Positions 2,365 through 52,989 of a stretch of DNA of 64,000 bases are shown piece after piece. The DNA comes from Nannocystis radixulma. Lineage in GTDB: Bacteria; Myxococcota_A; Polyangia; Nannocystales; Nannocystaceae. The stretch spans positions 89,350-153,349 of the forward strand of contig NZ_JAQNDN010000024.1 of the NCBI RefSeq assembly GCF_028369095.1, given 5' to 3'. How positions within the stretch are numbered: the stretch's first letter is position 1; every line of letters begins with the position of its first letter. The notes below the pieces were generated by a model that saw nothing but the letters and a program-made list of their open reading frames with translations, was not told the DNA's origin and ran no database searches. Position numbers and translations under genes: made by a program.

Positions 2365-5300
2365 TCAGGGCTTGGGCTGCGCGGGCTCGACCGGGGCCAG
2401 GGCCTTGGGCGCGGCGGGAGTCTGGGCCTTGAGGCGCTTGCGTCGCGGCTCCCACACGGCCTTGGGCCGCAGGGGGATCCGGCCGCCGAACAGCGAGAAG
2501 TAGCGCTGCGCGCCGTCGTTGCCGCCGCCGATGAGGCCGAACAGGGCGCGCCAGTGGAGGCCCTTCTTGACGCCGATGCCGTCGCCCTTGGCGTCGCTGA
2601 TCGCCTGCTCGGTGCGCCACCACCAGCCGAGGCCGGGGCCGATGACCTGGGTCTCGCGGCCGCGGCCGCGCTGACGGGCCCAGATGGCCGGCACGACCTG
2701 CGTGACGCGGCCCTTGCGGCGGATGTCCCACCACAGGAAGGCGCCGAAGGTGCCCGAGTTCTCGCCGCGCTCGATGTGCCAGATCAACGGGAACTGGACC
2801 CAGTCGTTGTCCTGGCCGCGCCGGCGCTGGAACACCAGGGCCGGGAAGACGCTGGTGAAGCTGGTGTCCTTGGCCCAGTTGTTGTCGCGCAGGAACAGCG
2901 GCAAGAGCCAGGTCATGCGCCGCTCGGCGTAGCTGTGCGCGGTGTAGAAGAGCGGCGGCGCGACCACGGTGGTCACCTTGTGCGGTCGGCGGAAGTTCCA
3001 GACCATCAGCCCGGCCTGGAACCACCGGTAGTCCTCGCGGTGGGCGCCGACGAACAGCGGCGGCAGCACGACGGTAGTGCTGCGATCCTTGGTGCGGTAG
3101 GCCTTGCGGAAGAACAGCGGGAAGAAGACGGTGGTCTTGAACTGCCGCGTGGTCGTGTGGCCGAAGTTGAGCGCGTACCAGGTGAGGCGCTCGCCGGGCC
3201 GCACGTTGGCGCCGCCCAGCAAGGTGAGGAACCGGCGGCCGCCCGGGTCCTTGTCGAAGTAGTAGAGCATCAGCGCGCCGTGGCTGGTGCGGCCCTTGCC
3301 GTCCTTGCCGTAGAGGAAGAACGGCCACGAGCCCCACAGCGTGTAGCGGCAACGATCGTCGTCCTCCTCGCGGAAGCCGCACTTCTGGTAGCGGAACGCG
3401 AACGGGACCACGCCGGTGAAGCGGTAGTTCTTGTGCAGGCGGAAGAAGTCGAAGAAGATCGGCGGAGCCAGGCTGAAGCGCGTGAAGTTGAACTGACCCT
3501 TGACGCCGACGACGAACGGGAACGCGACCCACGAGCGGCGACCGTTGGCCCGCTGACGGTCGAACCAGAACGGCACGGCGATGGTGGTGTGCTCGTTCTT
3601 CCCCTTGTCGGCCTGGTGGAAGATGAGCGGCAGCGAGATCAGGCGCCGCTTCTCCGCCGAGTCCATCCACCAGTAGACCGGGACCACACCGGCGTTGAGC
3701 GAGGTGCGGGTGAGGCGGTGGAACGCCGGGCCGGCGATGAGCGTGTGCGTGCGCCGGACCTTGTCGCGGCTGTAGAAGAACGGCAGCAGCAGGCCGGCGT
3801 CGACGTCGATGCCCTCGGGCTGGCGCTGGCGGAAGTAGAACGGGACGACCGCGAGGTTCTTGCGCGGCTTCTCGCCGCGCGTGGCGGTCCGCCAGACCAG
3901 CGGCGACCACATGTCGAGGTCCTCGCTCGGCGCGCGGTGGCGGGCGAACAGCGGCGCGATGACGAGGTTGCTGGCGACGCCGCCCTCGACCTTGCGCCGA
4001 TCGTAGAACACCAGCGGGATCAGGCCGAAGCCGCGGCGGACCGGATCCTTGTAGCCGCGGAAGCCGTAGAGGAGCGCCGCGGCCGACCAGGTGCGCTGCT
4101 CCGGCGTGCGGTAGGCGCCGCCCAGCGGGGTGAGGGTGAGCGTCTTGCCGTCCTTCTGGCGCCGGTAGAAGAGGGGGAACAGCGCGGTGTGGCGCTCGTC
4201 GCCGGCGCGCTTCACGTCCCAGAACAGGTTGAGCACGCCGATCGTGCGGTGGTCGGGGCCCTTGCTGCGGGCGAACAGCGGCGACACCGTCAGCGCGCGC
4301 TGGGCCTCGACGTCGTGGACATGTCCGAAGAGCAAGGGCGGGACGATGCCGTAGCGGTACTTGTCGTCGCGGCCGGCGAACACCAGCGGGGCGAGGCCGC
4401 CGTGACCGCCGGACTTGACCTTCTTGGCGTAGATCGGGCCGAGCACCCACAGGTCGCTCGGCTTGGCCGGGTCGGTGTCGCGGCGGTGCCAGAACAGCGG
4501 GGTGATGGTCTGGTACGAGCGGGTGCCGTCGCGGCCGACGAACGCGAGCGGGGCGAGGCCGGCGTCCCAGCGCTCGCCGCGGCGGCGGTAGAAGCCGAGC
4601 ACGCCGGCCGACAGCGTGCGCGAGCCCTTGCCGTCGTAGGCGCTCGGATCGTGCGAGTGGCCGAACAGCGGCGTGACGACCTGGAAGCTCTTGCCGCCCG
4701 GCTCGTTGCGCACGAACGTCAGCAGCGGGGTGATGCCGAAGCCCCAGCGGCCGTCCTTGCCGGCGCGACCGCCTCCGAGCAGGGTGTAGACCCGCGTGTC
4801 CTGCGGGCTCTTGCGCGCGTACAGCAGCGGGACGAACACGCTGCTGGTGACGCCGGCCTTCACGTCGCCGAACTGCCAGAACAGCGGGAACAGCACCCGG
4901 TTGCGCTGCTCCGGGTCGCGGTAGCTGACCCATGGGAACGCCGACCAGGCGACGCTGCCGCGGTCGCGGTTCTCGGAGCGCCACACCAGCGGCGTGGCCG
5001 AGAACAGCTTGCGCGTCGGGGTCTGGTGCGAGAACGTGAGGAGCGGCGGGACGGCCCACGCGCGCAGGCTGCGGGCCTTGTCGCTGCGCTGCACGTACAG
5101 CAGCGTCCACAGGTCCTTGCGGTTGCCGTACTCGCTCGACTGCCAGTGCACGAGCGGCAGCACCGTGTGCCACTTGACCCCGCGGGCCTTGTTCTGCCCG
5201 CCGATGTAGAGCGGGACGCCGACGTTGACGGTGCTCGGGCCGCGGGTCACGCGGTAGAACAGCGGGAAGCCGACGAAGTAGCGCAGGTCGTTGAGCGGGT

Positions 5301-17761: not shown

Positions 17762-19198
17762 GTGGAAGGCGATCGACGCGACGCGACCCGGCGGCTGGCG
17801 GTTCAGTTCGCCGCCCACCTGCGTCACCTCCGGGAGTTCCGGGGTTTGGCGTACGTGTCCGCCGCGTCCTCTCCGCGTCGCGCCGGCGCGCCGAGTTCCG
17901 CGCCCGAGGAGCGATCGCCGGCTCCGGACAGCACCTGGTCGTCCGGACAGGTGACCGATCACGCCGCCGCGGACGCGCGCACACCGACATGGCCCGAAGA
18001 CCAGGCCAGATCCGCCCGCGATTCCGGGCCGCGAGCGCGCACACAACCGGGCCCGGCGGCCTCGGGGCCGCCGCCGCAGGAGATGAAGCGAGGGCGCGCG
18101 CAGCCGGGCCCTGCGGACTGGGAGCCGTCGCAGGAGACGACACGCGGTCGCGCGCAGGCGGGCCCCGAGGACTGGGAGCCGTCGCCGCAGCCGGACCCCG
18201 GGGACTGGGAGCCGTGGCCGCCGCAGGAGACGACACGCGGGCGCGCGCAGCCGGGCTCCGGGGACTGGGAGTCGTCGCAGCAGGAGACGACACGCGGGCG
18301 CGCGCAGCGGGAGTCGCCGCCGCAGGAGCCGACGCGAGGGCGCGCCCAGCGGGGCCCTGCAGAGTGGGAGTCGTCGCCGCCGCAAGAGGCACCGCGCTCA
18401 CGCGCCGCGACCCCGCCGTCCGCGGAGCCGCCGCGCGCTCGCACGGTCAACCAGCAGCCGGCCGAGCCGTCGCCGCGACCCCGGACGGTCAGCCTGCCGC
18501 TGGCGGATCAGGGCACACCGCCGCGTGCGGCCGAGGGCGCGCCGCGCCCGGCCGGCGATGCCTCGCTGCGCACGCAGGCTCAGGCGTGGACGCCGGCGCA
18601 GAAGCTCGAGTACTTACGGGCTCGTAACGTCGGCGACTGCACCCGCTGCAAGCTCTCGAAGACCCGCACGAACATTGTATTCGGCGTCGGCGACCCCAAC
18701 GCGCGGGTGATGTTCATCGGCGAGGCGCCCGGCGCGGACGAAGATCGGCGCGGCGAGCCGTTCGTCGGCGCTGCCGGCCGGCGGCTGACACAGTGGATCG
18801 AGCGCCTGGGCATGAAGCGCGAGCAGGTCTACATCGCCAACGTGCTGAAGTGCCGGCCGCCCGGCAACCGCGAACCGGCCGCCGACGAGATCGAGAAGTG
18901 CTCGCCGTTCCTGCGCGCCCAGATCCGGGCGATCCGCCCCGCGGTGATCGTGGCGCTCGGCAGGTACGCGGGGATGTTGCTGATCGGCACCGATCAGGAT
19001 CTGAAGTTGGCACAGATGCGCAACCGTCGTTGGACCTACGACGACCCAGGTGCAGGCCTGCAGATCCCACTTCACGTCACGTATCATCCGTCGTACGTGA
19101 TCCGACGCGAGGGTGAACTCCCTCCGGGGCAGCGAAACCCGGCCGACGACACGGTGATGTCGGACCTCGAGCGAGCGCTGCGCGTGCTGCGAAGTTGA
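17762..19198 (+). CDS. Family-4 (UdgA-type, Fe-S) uracil-DNA glycosylase with long N-terminal disordered tandem-repeat extension
   Basis: C-terminal ~200 aa: [52 protein letters not shown]...HPSY. GTG at 17762 is preceded by GGAGG at 17749-17753, just after the coaBC stop. The nearest in-frame ATG is at 18083, so at least ~165 aa of repeat region is translated. Confidence 0.7.
18075..18410. repeat. Tandem ~57-bp coding repeats (protein units ..[18 protein letters not shown]..) in the udg 5' region
   Basis: Read directly. Both strands show long ORFs here purely because of the repeat. Confidence 0.7.
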
Positions 19199-19364
19199 TC
19201 GCGTCATGCACATGCAATGCCCGGATGCGCGACGGATTTTCACGCGTGAAGAGCTGTGGAGAAGTGGGTCGCGCGCGCCGCTCGCGAGCGCGTAGTGAAA
19301 TTTCTGTAGTCCAGTTTTCAGCGATGATCGTCACGTCAGCTGCTGATGCTGTTCGGCAGTACAG

Positions 19365-19393
19365 TTGACGGTTCGCGTCGCCACTTCTACAGT
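19365..19393 (+). promoter_or_regulatory. Candidate promoter for the HU-like gene (TTGACG-17-TACAGT), embedded in a 10-bp perfect inverted repeat
   Basis: -35 at 19365-19370, -10 at 19388-19393. Arms GCGTCGCCAC (19375-19384) and GTGGCGACGC (19403-19412) bracket the -10 and abut the ATG at 19414. Confidence 0.3.
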
Positions 19394-19413
19394 CACGTTT
19401 CTGTGGCGACGCG

Positions 19414-20073
19414 ATGACGAAGGCTGAACTCATCGAAAAAATCGCACGCAACCGTGATCTGCCGCCGGACATCACGAAGAAGTGCGTGCAGCAGATCCTC
19501 GAGATCGCGTTCGGGGAGATGGCCGCCTACTTCGTCAAGGCGAGGGTGACGCGGGCCCAGAGCCCGCGCTTCACGTTCCCCGGCTTCGGCACCTTCACCA
19601 AGAAGAAGCGCTCGGCTCGCAAGGGCGTCAACCCGCGGACGCTCGAGCCGATGACGATCGATGCGGCCTTCACGATCGACTTCCGTCCGGGCGTCGAGCT
19701 GCGCGCCAGCCTCAACGCTCCGGCTGGCAAGTCCGCCCCCGCGGCTCGGAAGCGGCGCGCCAGCCCGGCCCAGCTCGAGCTCGAGCCGCCGAGCGCCGAT
19801 CCGACCGAGCTCGACGAGGTCGACGAGGAGGATGTCGGCGAGATGAGCGACGAGGCCGACGCGGCCGACGAGGCGCTGATCCTCCGCCGCCGCTTCACCG
19901 CCCGCGAGGACCTCGAGGAGGACGACGCCGACGACGAGTTCGACGAGGTCTCGCTCGACGTGCTGCGCCGCAGCCAGCCCGCCGACCCGCGGCTCGAGCT
20001 GCCGCCGGCGCCGATGCAGCGCGCCGACGTGCCGGGCCGCCGCGCCCACGTACGCACCGGCTCGCGCTCCTGA
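19414..20073 (+). CDS. HU/IHF-family DNA-binding protein with ~120-aa Asp/Glu-rich C-terminal tail
   Basis: MTKAELIEKIA...RFTFPGFGTFTKKKRSARKGVNPRT is the HU fold. The tail is ...DEVDEEDVGEMSDEADAADE...EEDDADDEFDE. Confidence 0.85.
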   Translation: MTKAELIEKIARNRDLPPDITKKCVQQILEIAFGEMAAYFVKARVTRAQSPRFTFPGFGTFTKKKRSARKGVNPRTLEPMTIDAAFTIDFRPGVELRASLNAPAGKSAPAARKRRASPAQLELEPPSADPTELDEVDEEDVGEMSDEADAADEALILRRRFTAREDLEEDDADDEFDEVSLDVLRRSQPADPRLELPPAPMQRADVPGRRAHVRTGSRS

Positions 20074-20180
20074 GAGCTGTCCCGGGGGACATGGCAGCAG
20101 CCGGCCGACCCGCGGCTCGAGCTGCCGCCGGCCGATGCAGCGCGCCGGCTCGCGCTTCTGAGAACTGTCCCCGCGGACAT
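19961..20180. repeat. Partial tandem duplication of the 3' end of the HU-like gene, ending in GGACA-family motifs
   Basis: gccgacccgcggctcgagctgccgccgg...gctcgcgct(c/t)ctgaga(g/a)ctgtccc..ggacatg occurs twice: 19975-20092 and 20093-20180, with internal deletions. Confidence 0.6.
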
Positions 20181-20218
20181 GAACGAAGGGCCATGACCTC
20201 ACGGTCATGGCCCTTCGT
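20181..20218. terminator. Perfect 17-bp-stem hairpin (AACGAAGGGCCATGACC-tcac-GGTCATGGCCCTTCGTT) between convergent genes
   Basis: Read directly. Lies between the HU-like gene stop (20073) and the minus-strand lipoprotein stop (20248). Confidence 0.6.
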
Positions 20219-20247
20219 TCACTGAGGGCGGACGAGCGGTCGCCGGC

Positions 20248-20802
20248 TCACTGCGGCGCGGCCAGCTTGGCCCCGTTCTTGGGCGGCTCGGTCGGCTTGG
20301 GGGTGCCGGTCAGGGTGGCGGGCTTGGTCGTCGGCGCAGCGCCGCCGTTGGAGATGGTGCTGGTCTTGGGCTTGGACTCGCCGGTGGTGAGGCTGAGGCC
20401 GGCCTTCTGCGTGCCGTCACGCGGGGTGGCCTGGGTCCCCGGATCGAGGCGGGCCGGCGTGGGGTCGGTGGCGCGGCCCGGCTTGGGATCGGTGGCGCGG
20501 CCCGGCTTGGGGTCGGTGGCGCGGCCCGGCGTGGGCTCTTCGGTCGGCTCCGGCGCGGGCTCGGGAGTGGTGGTGGCGGGCTCGGGCTCGGGGGCAGGCT
20601 TGGGGGCGGGCTTGGCAGCGGGAGCCGGAGCAGGTGTGCTCGACGTGTCGACCGCGGCCTGGCGCGCCGGCTTGCCCTTGCCGTTCTTCGTCCCGTTGGT
20701 GGTGCCTGGCGCCGTTCCGGAGCGGCTCGACGACGAATACGAGAAGGAGCAGGCGGGCAGCGAGAAGGCGATGGCCATGAAGACCGGAAGGAGCTTGCGC
20801 AT
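20248..20802 (-). CDS. Putative secreted/lipoprotein, Pro/Thr/Ala-rich low-complexity with GRATDPKP x3 repeats
   Basis: Signal peptide MRKLLPVFMAIAFSLPAC. The alternative plus-strand ORF lacks protein-like features. Confidence 0.55.
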   Translation of the reverse strand: MRKLLPVFMAIAFSLPACSFSYSSSSRSGTAPGTTNGTKNGKGKPARQAAVDTSSTPAPAPAAKPAPKPAPEPEPATTTPEPAPEPTEEPTPGRATDPKPGRATDPKPGRATDPTPARLDPGTQATPRDGTQKAGLSLTTGESKPKTSTISNGGAAPTTKPATLTGTPKPTEPPKNGAKLAAPQ

Positions 20803-21054
20803 AAAACCTCGGCGTCCAGGACGCGCGACTTAGTGTCTTATTCAGGAGGGGGTCGGGCCAAGGGGTAGCCTCGCGCGGGGCGGCATCGCCCGCCAGCAGC
20901 GAGCTCACGGCGACGGAGATCGACGCGTGCGAGGGCCGATACCGCCCGCGTACCGCACAAGGGCCGATCCGGCGGCCTGGCCACCTCTACGCGGCCGTTC
21001 GCGGCGAGAGGGCCATTATCACCCGTCGTCTGTGAGGGTGCGAGGCGGCTTTAC

Positions 21055-27595: not shown

Positions 27596-28471
27596 CTAGC
27601 CGAGGGCGAGGACGGCGAGGCCGAGGACGACGAGGTAGGGCACGAAGGGGACCACGCCGACGCGGACGAGCAGGACCAGCAGCACGCGCAGGGTGGCGAC
27701 GCCGACGACGAAGCTGACGAAGAAGCCGACGACGAAGGCCAGCGGGTCGACGGCGGGCAGGCCCTCCTTCATCAGGTCGAGCGCCTCCTTGAGCGAGGCG
27801 CCGAGGATGGCGGGGATCGCCAGCAGGAACGAGAAGCGCGCGGCCGGCAGGCGGCCGAGGCCGAGGCCCATGGCGGCGGCGATCGTCGAGCCGCTGCGCG
27901 AGATGCCGGGCAGGATGGCGACGAGCTGGGCGAGGCCGATGAGCAGCGCCTGCAGCGGCCGCGGGACCTCCTGCGGGCGCCGGCGCTTGCGGGTCAGCCA
28001 CTCGGCCAGGCCCAGCATGGCCGCGGTGACGAGGAAGCAGGCGCCGATGGCCTTGGGGTGGTGCTCGGCGGCGATGACGAGGTTCTCGACCGGCGGGGCG
28101 AGGGCGGCGGCCAGCGGCAAGGTGCCGATGACGAGCGCGAGCAGCAGCGCCCGCGCGTCGGTCGGCGAGCTGCCCGAGGGGACATGTCCCTCCGAGCCTG
28201 GCGTATCGGGCATGCGCTCGGGGACATGTCCCGGACGCAGCACGGCGCGGGCCAGCGCGAGCAGGTCGTCGCGGTAGTGGATCAGGACGGCCAGCAGGGT
28301 GCCGGCGTGGACGACGATGTTGAACGAGTGGCCGCCGGCGCCGGCGTCGAGGCCGGCGACGCGTTGGGCCAGGGCGAGGTGGCCGGACGAGGAGATCGGC
28401 AGGAACTCGGCCACGCCCTGGAGGGCGCCGAGGAGGGCGGCGAGGCCGAGGTCGAGCTCGGGGGCGGACAT
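27596..28471 (-). CDS. uppP: Undecaprenyl-diphosphatase UppP/BacA, with ~25-aa loop insertion encoded by two GGGACATGTCCC copies
   Basis: ...GISRSGSTIAAAMGLG... Insertion RPGHVPERMPDTPGSEGHVPSGSS corresponds to nt 28178-28232. Confidence 0.9.
   Translation of the reverse strand: MSAPELDLGLAALLGALQGVAEFLPISSSGHLALAQRVAGLDAGAGGHSFNIVVHAGTLLAVLIHYRDDLLALARAVLRPGHVPERMPDTPGSEGHVPSGSSPTDARALLLALVIGTLPLAAALAPPVENLVIAAEHHPKAIGACFLVTAAMLGLAEWLTRKRRRPQEVPRPLQALLIGLAQLVAILPGISRSGSTIAAAMGLGLGRLPAARFSFLLAIPAILGASLKEALDLMKEGLPAVDPLAFVVGFFVSFVVGVATLRVLLVLLVRVGVVPFVPYLVVLGLAVLALG
28178..28232. repeat. Two GGGACATGTCCC copies inserted in frame in uppP
   Basis: Read directly. Confidence 0.8.
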
Positions 28472-52716: not shown

Positions 52717-52989
52717 GGAGCTGTCTCTCGGGACATGTCATGGTGACTTGGAGGACATGTCCTCCGGGGCATGCCGATGGCGATGAGGATGTGCTGTTCA
52801 CCTGGTCGACTGCGCGCGGGGCGAATTTGCGCGCGAAAATCGAGGCGATCGGACGCGACGGAAAGGGCGTAATGGCGGCTGGGGCTGGCGACGGGGCAGG
52901 AATGCTCGCCATCGCGCGAAGTGGCCTCTTGCCTGGAAATGAAACGCGTTCTAGATGTGTAGAACGCGTTTCACAGAGGACGAATCTCC

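Follow-up and report, generated by a model that had tools for sequence, protein, structure and literature searches.

The window analyzed here, a 64,000-nucleotide (nt) stretch of the Nannocystis radixulma genome (contig NZ_JAQNDN010000024.1, positions 89,350 to 153,349) with a G+C content of 72%, contains a gene for a 219-amino-acid (aa) protein of the DNABII (HU/IHF) family. The gene lies downstream of a uracil-DNA glycosylase (UDG) gene and converges with a lipoprotein-like gene. An earlier reading of the same DNA, hereafter the original prediction, had described the product as an HU fold followed by an acidic tail. This description is borne out, as the protein consists of a 101 aa core that matches PF00216 and a 118 aa C-terminal tail with a net charge of -14. 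The gene is preceded by a sigma-70-type promoter that is overlapped by an inverted repeat, and it is followed by a partial duplicate of its own 3' end, two copies of a dispersed palindrome, and a GC-rich hairpin. The features of the locus are collected in Table 1.

The open reading frame (ORF) has a third-codon-position G+C content of 0.90, and its start codon is secure because the first five residues (M1-T2-K3-A4-E5) are invariant across 110 homologues. The best protein match is an 'HU family DNA-binding protein' of Nannocystis sp. SCPEA4 with 98% identity. The Pfam profile PF00216 (Bac_DNA_binding) aligns to aa 1-101 over profile positions 1-90 of 90 with an E-value of 1.5e-17 and a score of 64.1 bits (cut-off 22.4). 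The core retains all hallmarks of DNA binding, among them the beta-arm motif RxxRxGxNPxT with its intercalating proline and the GFGxF turn. The invariant residues among the 110 homologues are G59, T60, F61, R66, R69, G71, N73, P74, R75, and T76, which make up the arm motif R66-x-x-R69-x-G71-x-N73-P74-R75-T76 together with G59-T60-F61. When the protein was searched against Protein Data Bank (PDB) sequences, IHF-beta and HU were the best solved relatives (E about 1e-8).

To place the core structurally, an AlphaFold2 (AF2) prediction of the monomer was built on the 110-sequence alignment. The core is predicted with a local confidence score (pLDDT) of 70-90 and contains helices at residues 3-12, 22-42, and 94-99 and four strands, which corresponds to a helix-helix-beta-arm-helix topology. 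Foldseek placed Anabaena HU(-DNA) and IHF-beta at the top with a probability of 0.98, a weak E-value (1e-3), and a high root-mean-square deviation for this monomer model. None of the NCBIfam equivalog cut-offs for IHF-alpha, IHF-beta, HU-alpha, or HU-beta is reached by the protein. The best is TIGR00988 (IHF-beta), with 51.3 bits against a required 119.95, and HU-beta scores 35.9 against 157. By its sequence, the protein belongs to DNABII but cannot be assigned to HU-alpha, HU-beta, IHF-alpha, or IHF-beta.

Table 1. Features of the DNABII locus, in window coordinates.
Feature	Coordinates	Strand	Basis
Sigma-70-type promoter: -35 TTGACG (19365-19370), 17-nt spacer, -10 TACAGT (19388-19393)	19365..19393	+	consensus scan, footprinting
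12-bp perfect inverted repeat, arms 19373-19384 / 19403-19414, 18-nt loop	19373..19414	.	repeat search, DNA fold
Coding sequence, DNABII (HU/IHF-family) protein with C-terminal extension, 219 aa	19414..20073	+	ORF, PF00216
DNABII core, aa 1-101, net charge +9	19414..19716	+	PF00216, AF2, Foldseek
Disordered linker, aa 102-154: short basic start (RKRR), then acidic block	19717..19875	+	charge map, pLDDT
Tail motif A, aa 155-170 (LILRRRFTAREDLEED)	19876..19923	+	family consensus G-R-[RK]-[LF]-x-[ST]-R-[DE]-[DE]-x-E-L-[DE]
Duplication copy 1: gene end (aa 186-219), stop codon 20071-20073, 20 nt with first TGTCC-N4-GGACATG	19970..20093	+	repeat search
Tail motif B, aa 194-204 (LELPPAPMQRA)	19993..20025	+	family consensus L-P-x-[AP]-P-[ML]-Q-R-[VA]
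Palindrome copy M1 (TGTCCcgggGGACAtg)	20078..20093	.	window-wide family
Duplication copy 2: non-coding degenerate gene-end duplicate, wholly past the stop	20094..20181	+	alignment to copy 1
Palindrome copy M2 (TGTCCccgcGGACAtg), at 3' edge of copy 2	20166..20181	.	window-wide family
19-bp perfect GC-rich hairpin, stem 20180-20198 / 20203-20221, 4-nt loop TCAC	20180..20221	.	between convergent HU gene and lipoprotein-like gene
Convergent lipoprotein-like, Pro/Thr-rich gene (MRKLLPVFMAIAFSLPAC...)	20248..20802	-	ORF

The C-terminal tail and its orthologues

The tail (aa 102-219) contains 31 Asp or Glu and 17 Lys or Arg residues, and its acidity is unevenly distributed. From the N to the C terminus, the basic start of the linker (RKRR) is followed by an acidic block (net -14), a basic LILRRRFTARE segment, a second acidic block (net -9), and a basic, Pro-rich end. 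The linker is 53 aa long and includes an uninterrupted 29-residue stretch (aa 126-154) with 14 acidic and no basic residues. AF2 assigns a pLDDT below 50 to aa 107-157. Beyond the linker lies a C-terminal module of ~50 aa, which consists of motif A, a short acidic stretch, and motif B, and which usually ends in TG(S). The pair of motifs, in short form RRxFTxR-DDLE for A and LPxAPMQR for B, is common to all tails. Within motif A, R164 is invariant and R158, R159, and R160 are nearly so across the 110 homologues; within motif B, the homologue alignments show L196 and P200 to be invariant and M201, Q202, and R203 to be nearly so. The pLDDT of the module is 56-71, with the tail maximum of 71 at aa 191-200. 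A separate AF2 model of a short-tailed orthologue likewise resulted in a linker below 50 and a module at about 72, with a helix over motif A.

Homology searches with the tail returned almost nothing. A tail-only phmmer search against 1.84 billion representatives matched a single 70-aa fragment of the same family, and a profile of the module matched one partial Enhygromyxa protein in a 5.8-billion protein set, no PDB sequence at E<=1, and no Pfam family under E=0.1. At the level of sequence, the tail and its module are thus without detectable relatives outside the family in these four collections. A clamp-binding-like reading of YDPSLF or QLELE was dropped, since the motif is not kept in the window's clade.

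To follow the gene through its relatives, we assembled 85 related loci (cited below by L number), 80 from a genome-collection scan and five from exact-protein look-ups. Orthologues were translated through to the stop codon and aligned, and synteny was established by tblastn with the neighboring proteins of the window. The gene order coaBC-UDG-HU is present in every tail-bearing locus and also in tail-less Haliangium/Kofleriaceae-type loci. Because this order is shared by tail-bearing and tail-less loci, the HU loci are orthologues of one vertically inherited DNABII gene, the coaBC-UDG-HU neighborhood of which is fixed across Polyangia.

The comparison of tails across relatives that the original prediction had proposed reveals three states. 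Outside Nannocystales, the relatives are tail-less proteins of 103-112 aa. All Nannocystales proteins carry an extension, of 56-158 aa, which is basic in Enhygromyxa and Plesiocystis (whole-tail net charge +11 to +32) and acidic in Nannocystis (-8 to -14). The same trend is found in the linker alone, which is K/A/S-rich with a charge of +17 to +30 in Enhygromyxa salina and Plesiocystis pacifica (Plesiocystis up to +30), around zero in several lineages of metagenome-assembled genomes (MAGs), and -9 in Nannocystis sensu stricto. Motif A is retained in the basic-tailed Enhygromyxa and Plesiocystis orthologues. The charge of the core varies little (+7 to +12 across tail-bearing orthologues) and does not correlate with that of the tail (rho 0.16, p 0.27; tail-bearing orthologues). 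On these alignments, the acidity of the tail is a derived character of the genus, and what stays constant in this modular tail are two short linear motifs and not the charge. The tail originated independently in Nannocystales, apart from the tails of HupB and HupS. The original prediction had contrasted the acidic tail with the Lys-rich tails of mycobacterial HU. This contrast was apt, and it is sharper than could be known at the time because the orthologues of the sister genera themselves carry Lys-rich tails.

It is possible, although we hold it to be unlikely, that the acidic composition has no specific function. The linker would then be a low-complexity spacer that evolves fast and neutrally, and the C-terminal module alone would be of importance. 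The orthologous linkers range from 23 to 110 aa and from -9 to +30 in charge, they are predicted to be disordered, and the gene contains short in-frame repeats of GAC/GAG-rich units that suggest slippage. Set against this, acidity is kept in the Nannocystis clade down to about 52-57% identity (L006-L009, L011, and L033, net -7 to -12), and the basic character is kept across Enhygromyxa and Plesiocystis. As each charge is maintained within its own clades, lineage-specific selection on charge is suggested. We infer instead, by analogy with systems discussed below, that the tail tunes DNA binding.

The promoter and its inverted repeat

The promoter named by the original prediction is supported by phylogenetic footprinting. 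In about 35 of 50 Nannocystaceae loci, the orthologue is preceded by the pattern TTGAC[GA]-N16-18-(C)TAnAGT, at 14-71 nt from the ATG, and TTGACG-17-TACAGT is the sole sigma-70-like site in 19000-20900 (0.1 expected). In Nannocystis sensu stricto, the distance from the -10 hexamer to the ATG is only 20 nt. Because of this short distance, the predicted mRNA starts near 19400 and carries only the right arm of the inverted repeat. Its 5' untranslated region (UTR) would be about 14 nt long with no Shine-Dalgarno sequence, so that the message is predicted to be nearly leaderless. In an alignment of eight Nannocystis genomes, five of the 67 columns at -67..-1 are variable, as compared to 29 of 101 third-codon positions and to about 30% divergence farther upstream, which indicates that the -67..-1 region is under constraint.

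On its upstream side, the -35 hexamer is abutted by CTGTTCGGCAGTACAG (19349-19364), which is invariant in the eight Nannocystis genomes; the ACAG beside TTGACG is conserved beyond this genus set. The site fits the pattern CTGT-N8-ACAG, which occurs nine times in the window against 0.42 expected. Reading it as a LexA-like SOS box was not adopted, as the site is a two-mismatch variant of the TGTCC-N4-GGACA palindrome described below. The other eight matches are five exact or one-mismatch copies of this palindrome and three two-mismatch relatives.

The inverted repeat that the original prediction had found around the -10 hexamer is real and does end at the ATG, although its arms are 12 bp and not 10 bp long. 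Its left arm is located within the promoter spacer, its loop contains the -10 hexamer, and its right arm occupies the predicted 5' UTR up to and including the A of the ATG. A fold of -16 kcal/mol (z=-3.8) is calculated for the repeat as single-stranded DNA. Perfect inverted repeats of at least 12 bp (loop 3-30) number five in the 64 kb, against about one expected, and two of these flank the HU gene. The other three are located at 2159-2193, 28179-28232, and 52940-52973, and the one at 28179 is composed of GGGACATGTCCC copies. Seven of the eight Nannocystis genomes share an identical repeat and N. exedens has an uncompensated G->C in the left arm. The constraint on the arms does not exceed that on the rest of the -67..-1 region. 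The more distant orthologous promoters outside the genus have no equivalent repeat, though the -35 and -10 hexamers are kept. The repeat over the -10 hexamer is a genus-level addition under purifying selection, and it is possibly an operator or an extrudable cruciform. The autoregulatory or structural control that the original prediction had attached to it is not established, given that the repeat is confined to Nannocystis sensu stricto, is mismatched in N. exedens, and is missing from distant promoters.

One tentative reading, which we regard as unlikely, is that the HU-like protein represses its own promoter through this 42-bp symmetric element, with arms 10-21 bp on either side of the end of the -10 hexamer, or through its cruciform. 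About 35 bp are covered by a DNABII dimer, HU has a preference for cruciform and kinked DNA, and the hup and ihf genes of E. coli are autoregulated. HU autoregulation is geometrically plausible here because the element is centred on the end of the -10 hexamer. Moreover, the repeat is very unlikely to have arisen by chance, the conservation of its arms matches that of the -35 and -10 hexamers, and it overlaps the spacer, the -10 hexamer, and the initially transcribed region. However, promoters outside the genus do with the hexamers alone, N. exedens leaves its arm mismatch uncompensated, and the arm sequence is not in excess elsewhere in the window. As a repeated operator, TCGCGTCGCCAC was rejected, with four matches against 3.8 expected. 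The sequence GGCGACGC recurs in the promoter spacer of L008 and L009, and there is no consistent repeat pattern in distant orthologues. It should be noted that L009, a distant Nannocystis MAG, has at about 1215-1270 a 10-bp perfect inverted repeat (AGCGTCGCCG / CGGCGACGCT) around the orthologous -35 hexamer. This repeat shares a GCGTCGCC core with the arms in the window; it is isolated and absent from L008.

Quite improbable, in our judgment, is that the repeat acts in RNA, such that transcripts reading through from the UDG gene bury the start codon in a hairpin and only transcripts from the proximal promoter, with the right arm alone, are translated. The RNA of 19340-19450 does fold with -44.2 kcal/mol (z -3.3) and with the ATG inside a stem, and the predicted transcription start site falls between the arms. 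Yet read-through from the UDG gene is itself postulated, and loci in which UDG and HU are closest together, such as L085 with its 54-nt gap, lack the repeat.

The 3' region and neighboring genes

The original prediction had also recognized a ~90-bp tandem duplication with deletions that ends in GGACA motifs. The duplication is real, but it extends over 19970-20181 and not over 19975-20180, and its first copy comprises the last 101 nt of the coding sequence, the stop codon, and 20 nt beyond. The residues encoded by copy 1 are conserved family-wide. Copy 2 differs from copy 1 by deletions of 1, 2, and 33 nt plus a few substitutions, and both copies terminate in TGTCC-N4-GGACATG. Copy 2 is 88 nt long in the window, shorter in Nannocystis sp. 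SCPEA4 (L081), and nearly lost in one N. pusilla strain (L082). In five other Nannocystis species (L001-L005, about 4650-4790, 3' of the HU orthologue), copy 2 is absent and two tandem units are found instead, each of which consists of TGTCC-N4-GGACATG and a hairpin with a 13-15 bp stem. Most simply, the two arrangements would be two independent tandem duplications, each with the palindrome at its breakpoint. Because copy 2 is being lost through deletions in close relatives and is missing from five species, it is a decaying, non-functional relic of a tandem duplication. That 20094-20181 is instead a functional 3' UTR element or small RNA is highly improbable: the 3' region is strongly structured (z -5.9) and gives a sub-threshold Rfam match to ncS011 at 20111-20219, yet different segments are deleted in the two closest relatives, five congeners have no copy, and the Rfam score is far under threshold and covers a generic GC hairpin. 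The identity of ncS011 (Burkholderia sRNA 11) was rejected at 29.8 bits against a gathering threshold of 48; it was the only match at E<=1 in a scan of 18900-20900.

The breakpoint of the duplication would lie at a genus-specific dispersed palindrome. TGTCC-N4-GGACA (core GGACATGTCC) occurs 39 times in the window with no more than one mismatch, against 1.76 expected, an approximately 20-fold excess, and GACATGT is the most enriched 7-mer of the window. Copies are enriched at gene boundaries, with 18 of the 39 outside a crude long-ORF mask that covers 79%, and some occur in close pairs, 14-36 nt apart. Examples in addition to 20078 and 20166 are 27198/27234, 35711, 36360, 44377/44399, 52722/52758, and 57791/57805. 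In the 3' regions of the eight Nannocystis genomes, the stem of M1 is conserved and its loop is free. Among the fetched loci, the palindrome is nearly confined to Nannocystis sensu stricto, with one other exact match in L011, a distant Nannocystis MAG, away from the HU gene. The palindrome could be a REP-like (repetitive extragenic palindromic) element, a protein site, or a recombination hotspot.

The perfect hairpin that the original prediction had placed between the convergent genes exists, with a stem of 19 bp instead of 17. Its sequence is unique in the window, and the eight Nannocystis genomes conserve the stem and vary in the loop. L007 has a compensatory variant of the hairpin, and in other relatives its place is taken by unrelated hairpins of 13-22 bp. 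Where two hairpins are present, as in the five species above, the first contains G.T pairs and can therefore fold only as plus-strand RNA. The conserved stem, the compensatory variant, the positional hairpins elsewhere, and the G.T pairs favor an RNA 3'-end function. Most likely, the hairpin is a candidate bidirectional terminator that lacks a U-tract, or a 3'-end stabilizer, and it would end or stabilize the transcripts of both convergent genes.

The convergent lipoprotein-like gene matches no family of Pfam or NCBIfam, and only the loci of Nannocystis sensu stricto were found to contain it. It contains 24-nt tandem repeats at 20449-20535 (PGRATDPK x3). On the other side of the HU gene, the UDG gene has a long N-terminal extension of tandem repeats with periods of 54-99 nt (18070-18435, + strand, the part of the ORF upstream of the UDG domain). 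The UDG lengths given by gene callers in relatives differ widely, for example with 478 aa for L081 as compared to 174 aa for L082. The P0097 lineage has, immediately after the HU orthologue and in the same orientation, a gene for an MMPL/RND-type transporter (L083, 5611-8325; L084, 1866-4580), which lies between the HU and TetR genes. L010 and L012 have a comparably large gap between HU and TetR, of about 3.7-3.9 kb. The DNA features around the HU gene are useful mainly as annotation; they comprise a well-footprinted promoter, a promoter palindrome specific to the genus, a dispersed palindrome marking duplication breakpoints, and a hairpin without a U-tract.

Interpretation and comparison with known systems

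As a whole, the locus is best explained as a tailed DNABII orthologue with a linker that tunes DNA binding in cis, a conserved C-terminal module, a conserved promoter, a relic 3' duplicate, and a hairpin 3' end, to which we assign a probability of roughly 0.6. The gene would be expressed from the family-conserved sigma-70-type promoter as a nearly leaderless mRNA. Like HU and IHF, the core would bind DNA as a dimer and bend it. The polyanionic linker tethered to the core in Nannocystis may compete with DNA, in cis, for binding to the basic saddle and arms, and this competition would lower and tune the non-specific affinity in a manner similar to the acidic tail of HMGB1 or to the trans-acting DNA mimics that block HU. 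The conserved module would have a lineage-wide role in docking onto the core or in recruiting a partner. Tuning in cis is favored because the linker holds a stretch of 29 residues, 14 of them acidic and none basic, beside a domain of charge +9, akin to HMGB1 and in parallel to DMP12 and Gp46.

Several points weigh against this explanation. The competition between tail and core is hypothetical, the AF2 prediction being that of a monomer, and the wide range of linker charge could make the linker a mere spacer. No second DNABII gene is present within the 64-kb window, and a conventional tail-less HU elsewhere in the genome would make the tailed gene a specialized paralogue. With regard to the DNA elements, the inverted repeat shows no covariation and tolerates the mismatch in N. 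exedens. The terminal hairpin is followed by no T-run on either strand, and an intrinsic-terminator scan gave no sites, so that the canonical definition (stem-loop plus U-tract) does not apply to it.

A bolder and doubtful extension is a DNABII protein with its own tethered DNA mimic. Here, the acidic linker would auto-inhibit or tune the core, the sister genera would have placed an H1-like basic linker on the same docking module, and the system would perhaps be coupled to cruciform autoregulation over its own -10 hexamer. If true, this would amount to a natural charge-swap experiment in bacterial chromatin proteins.

Among the DNA elements, the dispersed palindrome invites comparison with REP elements, which are imperfect palindromes of 20-40 nt that occur in many copies, lie mostly outside genes, carry a GTAG/CGTC tag, and are associated with a RAYT transposase. 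Like REP-type palindromes (PMC3733652, PMC12306157), the Nannocystis palindrome is short, highly over-represented, enriched at gene boundaries, and sometimes found in arrays. It differs in its length of 14-16 nt with a 5-7 bp stem, in that about half of its copies lie inside long ORFs, and in that no GTAG/CGTC tag was seen in the listed copies.

The protein itself shares with HU/IHF (DNABII, PF00216) the full-length core match, the GFGxF turn, the RxxRxGxNPxT arm with its intercalating proline, and the predicted helix-helix-beta-arm-helix topology. It differs in that its core is 101 aa long instead of about 90, with an insertion ahead of the first strand, and in that it is extended C-terminally by 118 aa. 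For this extension, the functional analogy is HMGB1, a eukaryotic architectural protein whose acidic tail competes with DNA. Both proteins have a basic DNA-bending domain tethered to a disordered, D/E-rich tail that could fold back and compete with DNA. The fold and lineage of HMGB1 are unrelated, and intramolecular inhibition in the Nannocystis protein is an analogy.

Within bacteria, the Neisseria protein DMP12 (PMC3643605) and the phage protein Gp46 (PMC8892312) are reported to inhibit HU, and DMP12 is a DNA mimic that occupies the DNA-binding site of HU (PMC3643605). By analogy, the acidic linker of Nannocystis could act likewise in cis, whereas DMP12 and Gp46 are separate, trans-acting proteins with no sequence relationship to the linker. 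An architectural DNA-binding protein of myxobacteria, CarD of Myxococcus xanthus (PMC8156234), also joins a highly acidic segment to basic elements that bind DNA; its acidic region of ~50 residues adjoins AT-hook repeats (PMC8156234). It differs in having AT hooks and not a DNABII domain, in its domain order, and in the lack of homology.

The same architecture is found in mycobacterial HupB/MDP1 and Streptomyces HupS, which are HU proteins with a Lys-rich, histone-H1-like C-terminal tail (PMC5676037, PMC11472566). As in these proteins (PMC5676037, PMC11472566), a DNABII core is followed by a long, disordered C-terminal tail, and the Enhygromyxa and Plesiocystis orthologues have the K/A/S-rich, net-basic tail of the HupB/HupS type, with net charges of +19 to +32. 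The Nannocystis tail, at net -14, falls outside of this type, and the tails of Nannocystales end in a module (motifs A and B) that is unmatched in Pfam or PDB. No description of an acidic-tailed HU was found in the literature searched on HU and nucleoid-associated proteins, and a clade review of the HU superfamily describes only positively charged, low-complexity extensions. The HU-family tails described so far are basic and add DNA contacts. A single orthologous set with no tail, a basic tail, or an acidic tail, with shared end motifs and a constant core charge, provides a clean comparative system in which to study how nucleoid proteins are tuned by disordered tails and to which partners the conserved motifs bind.

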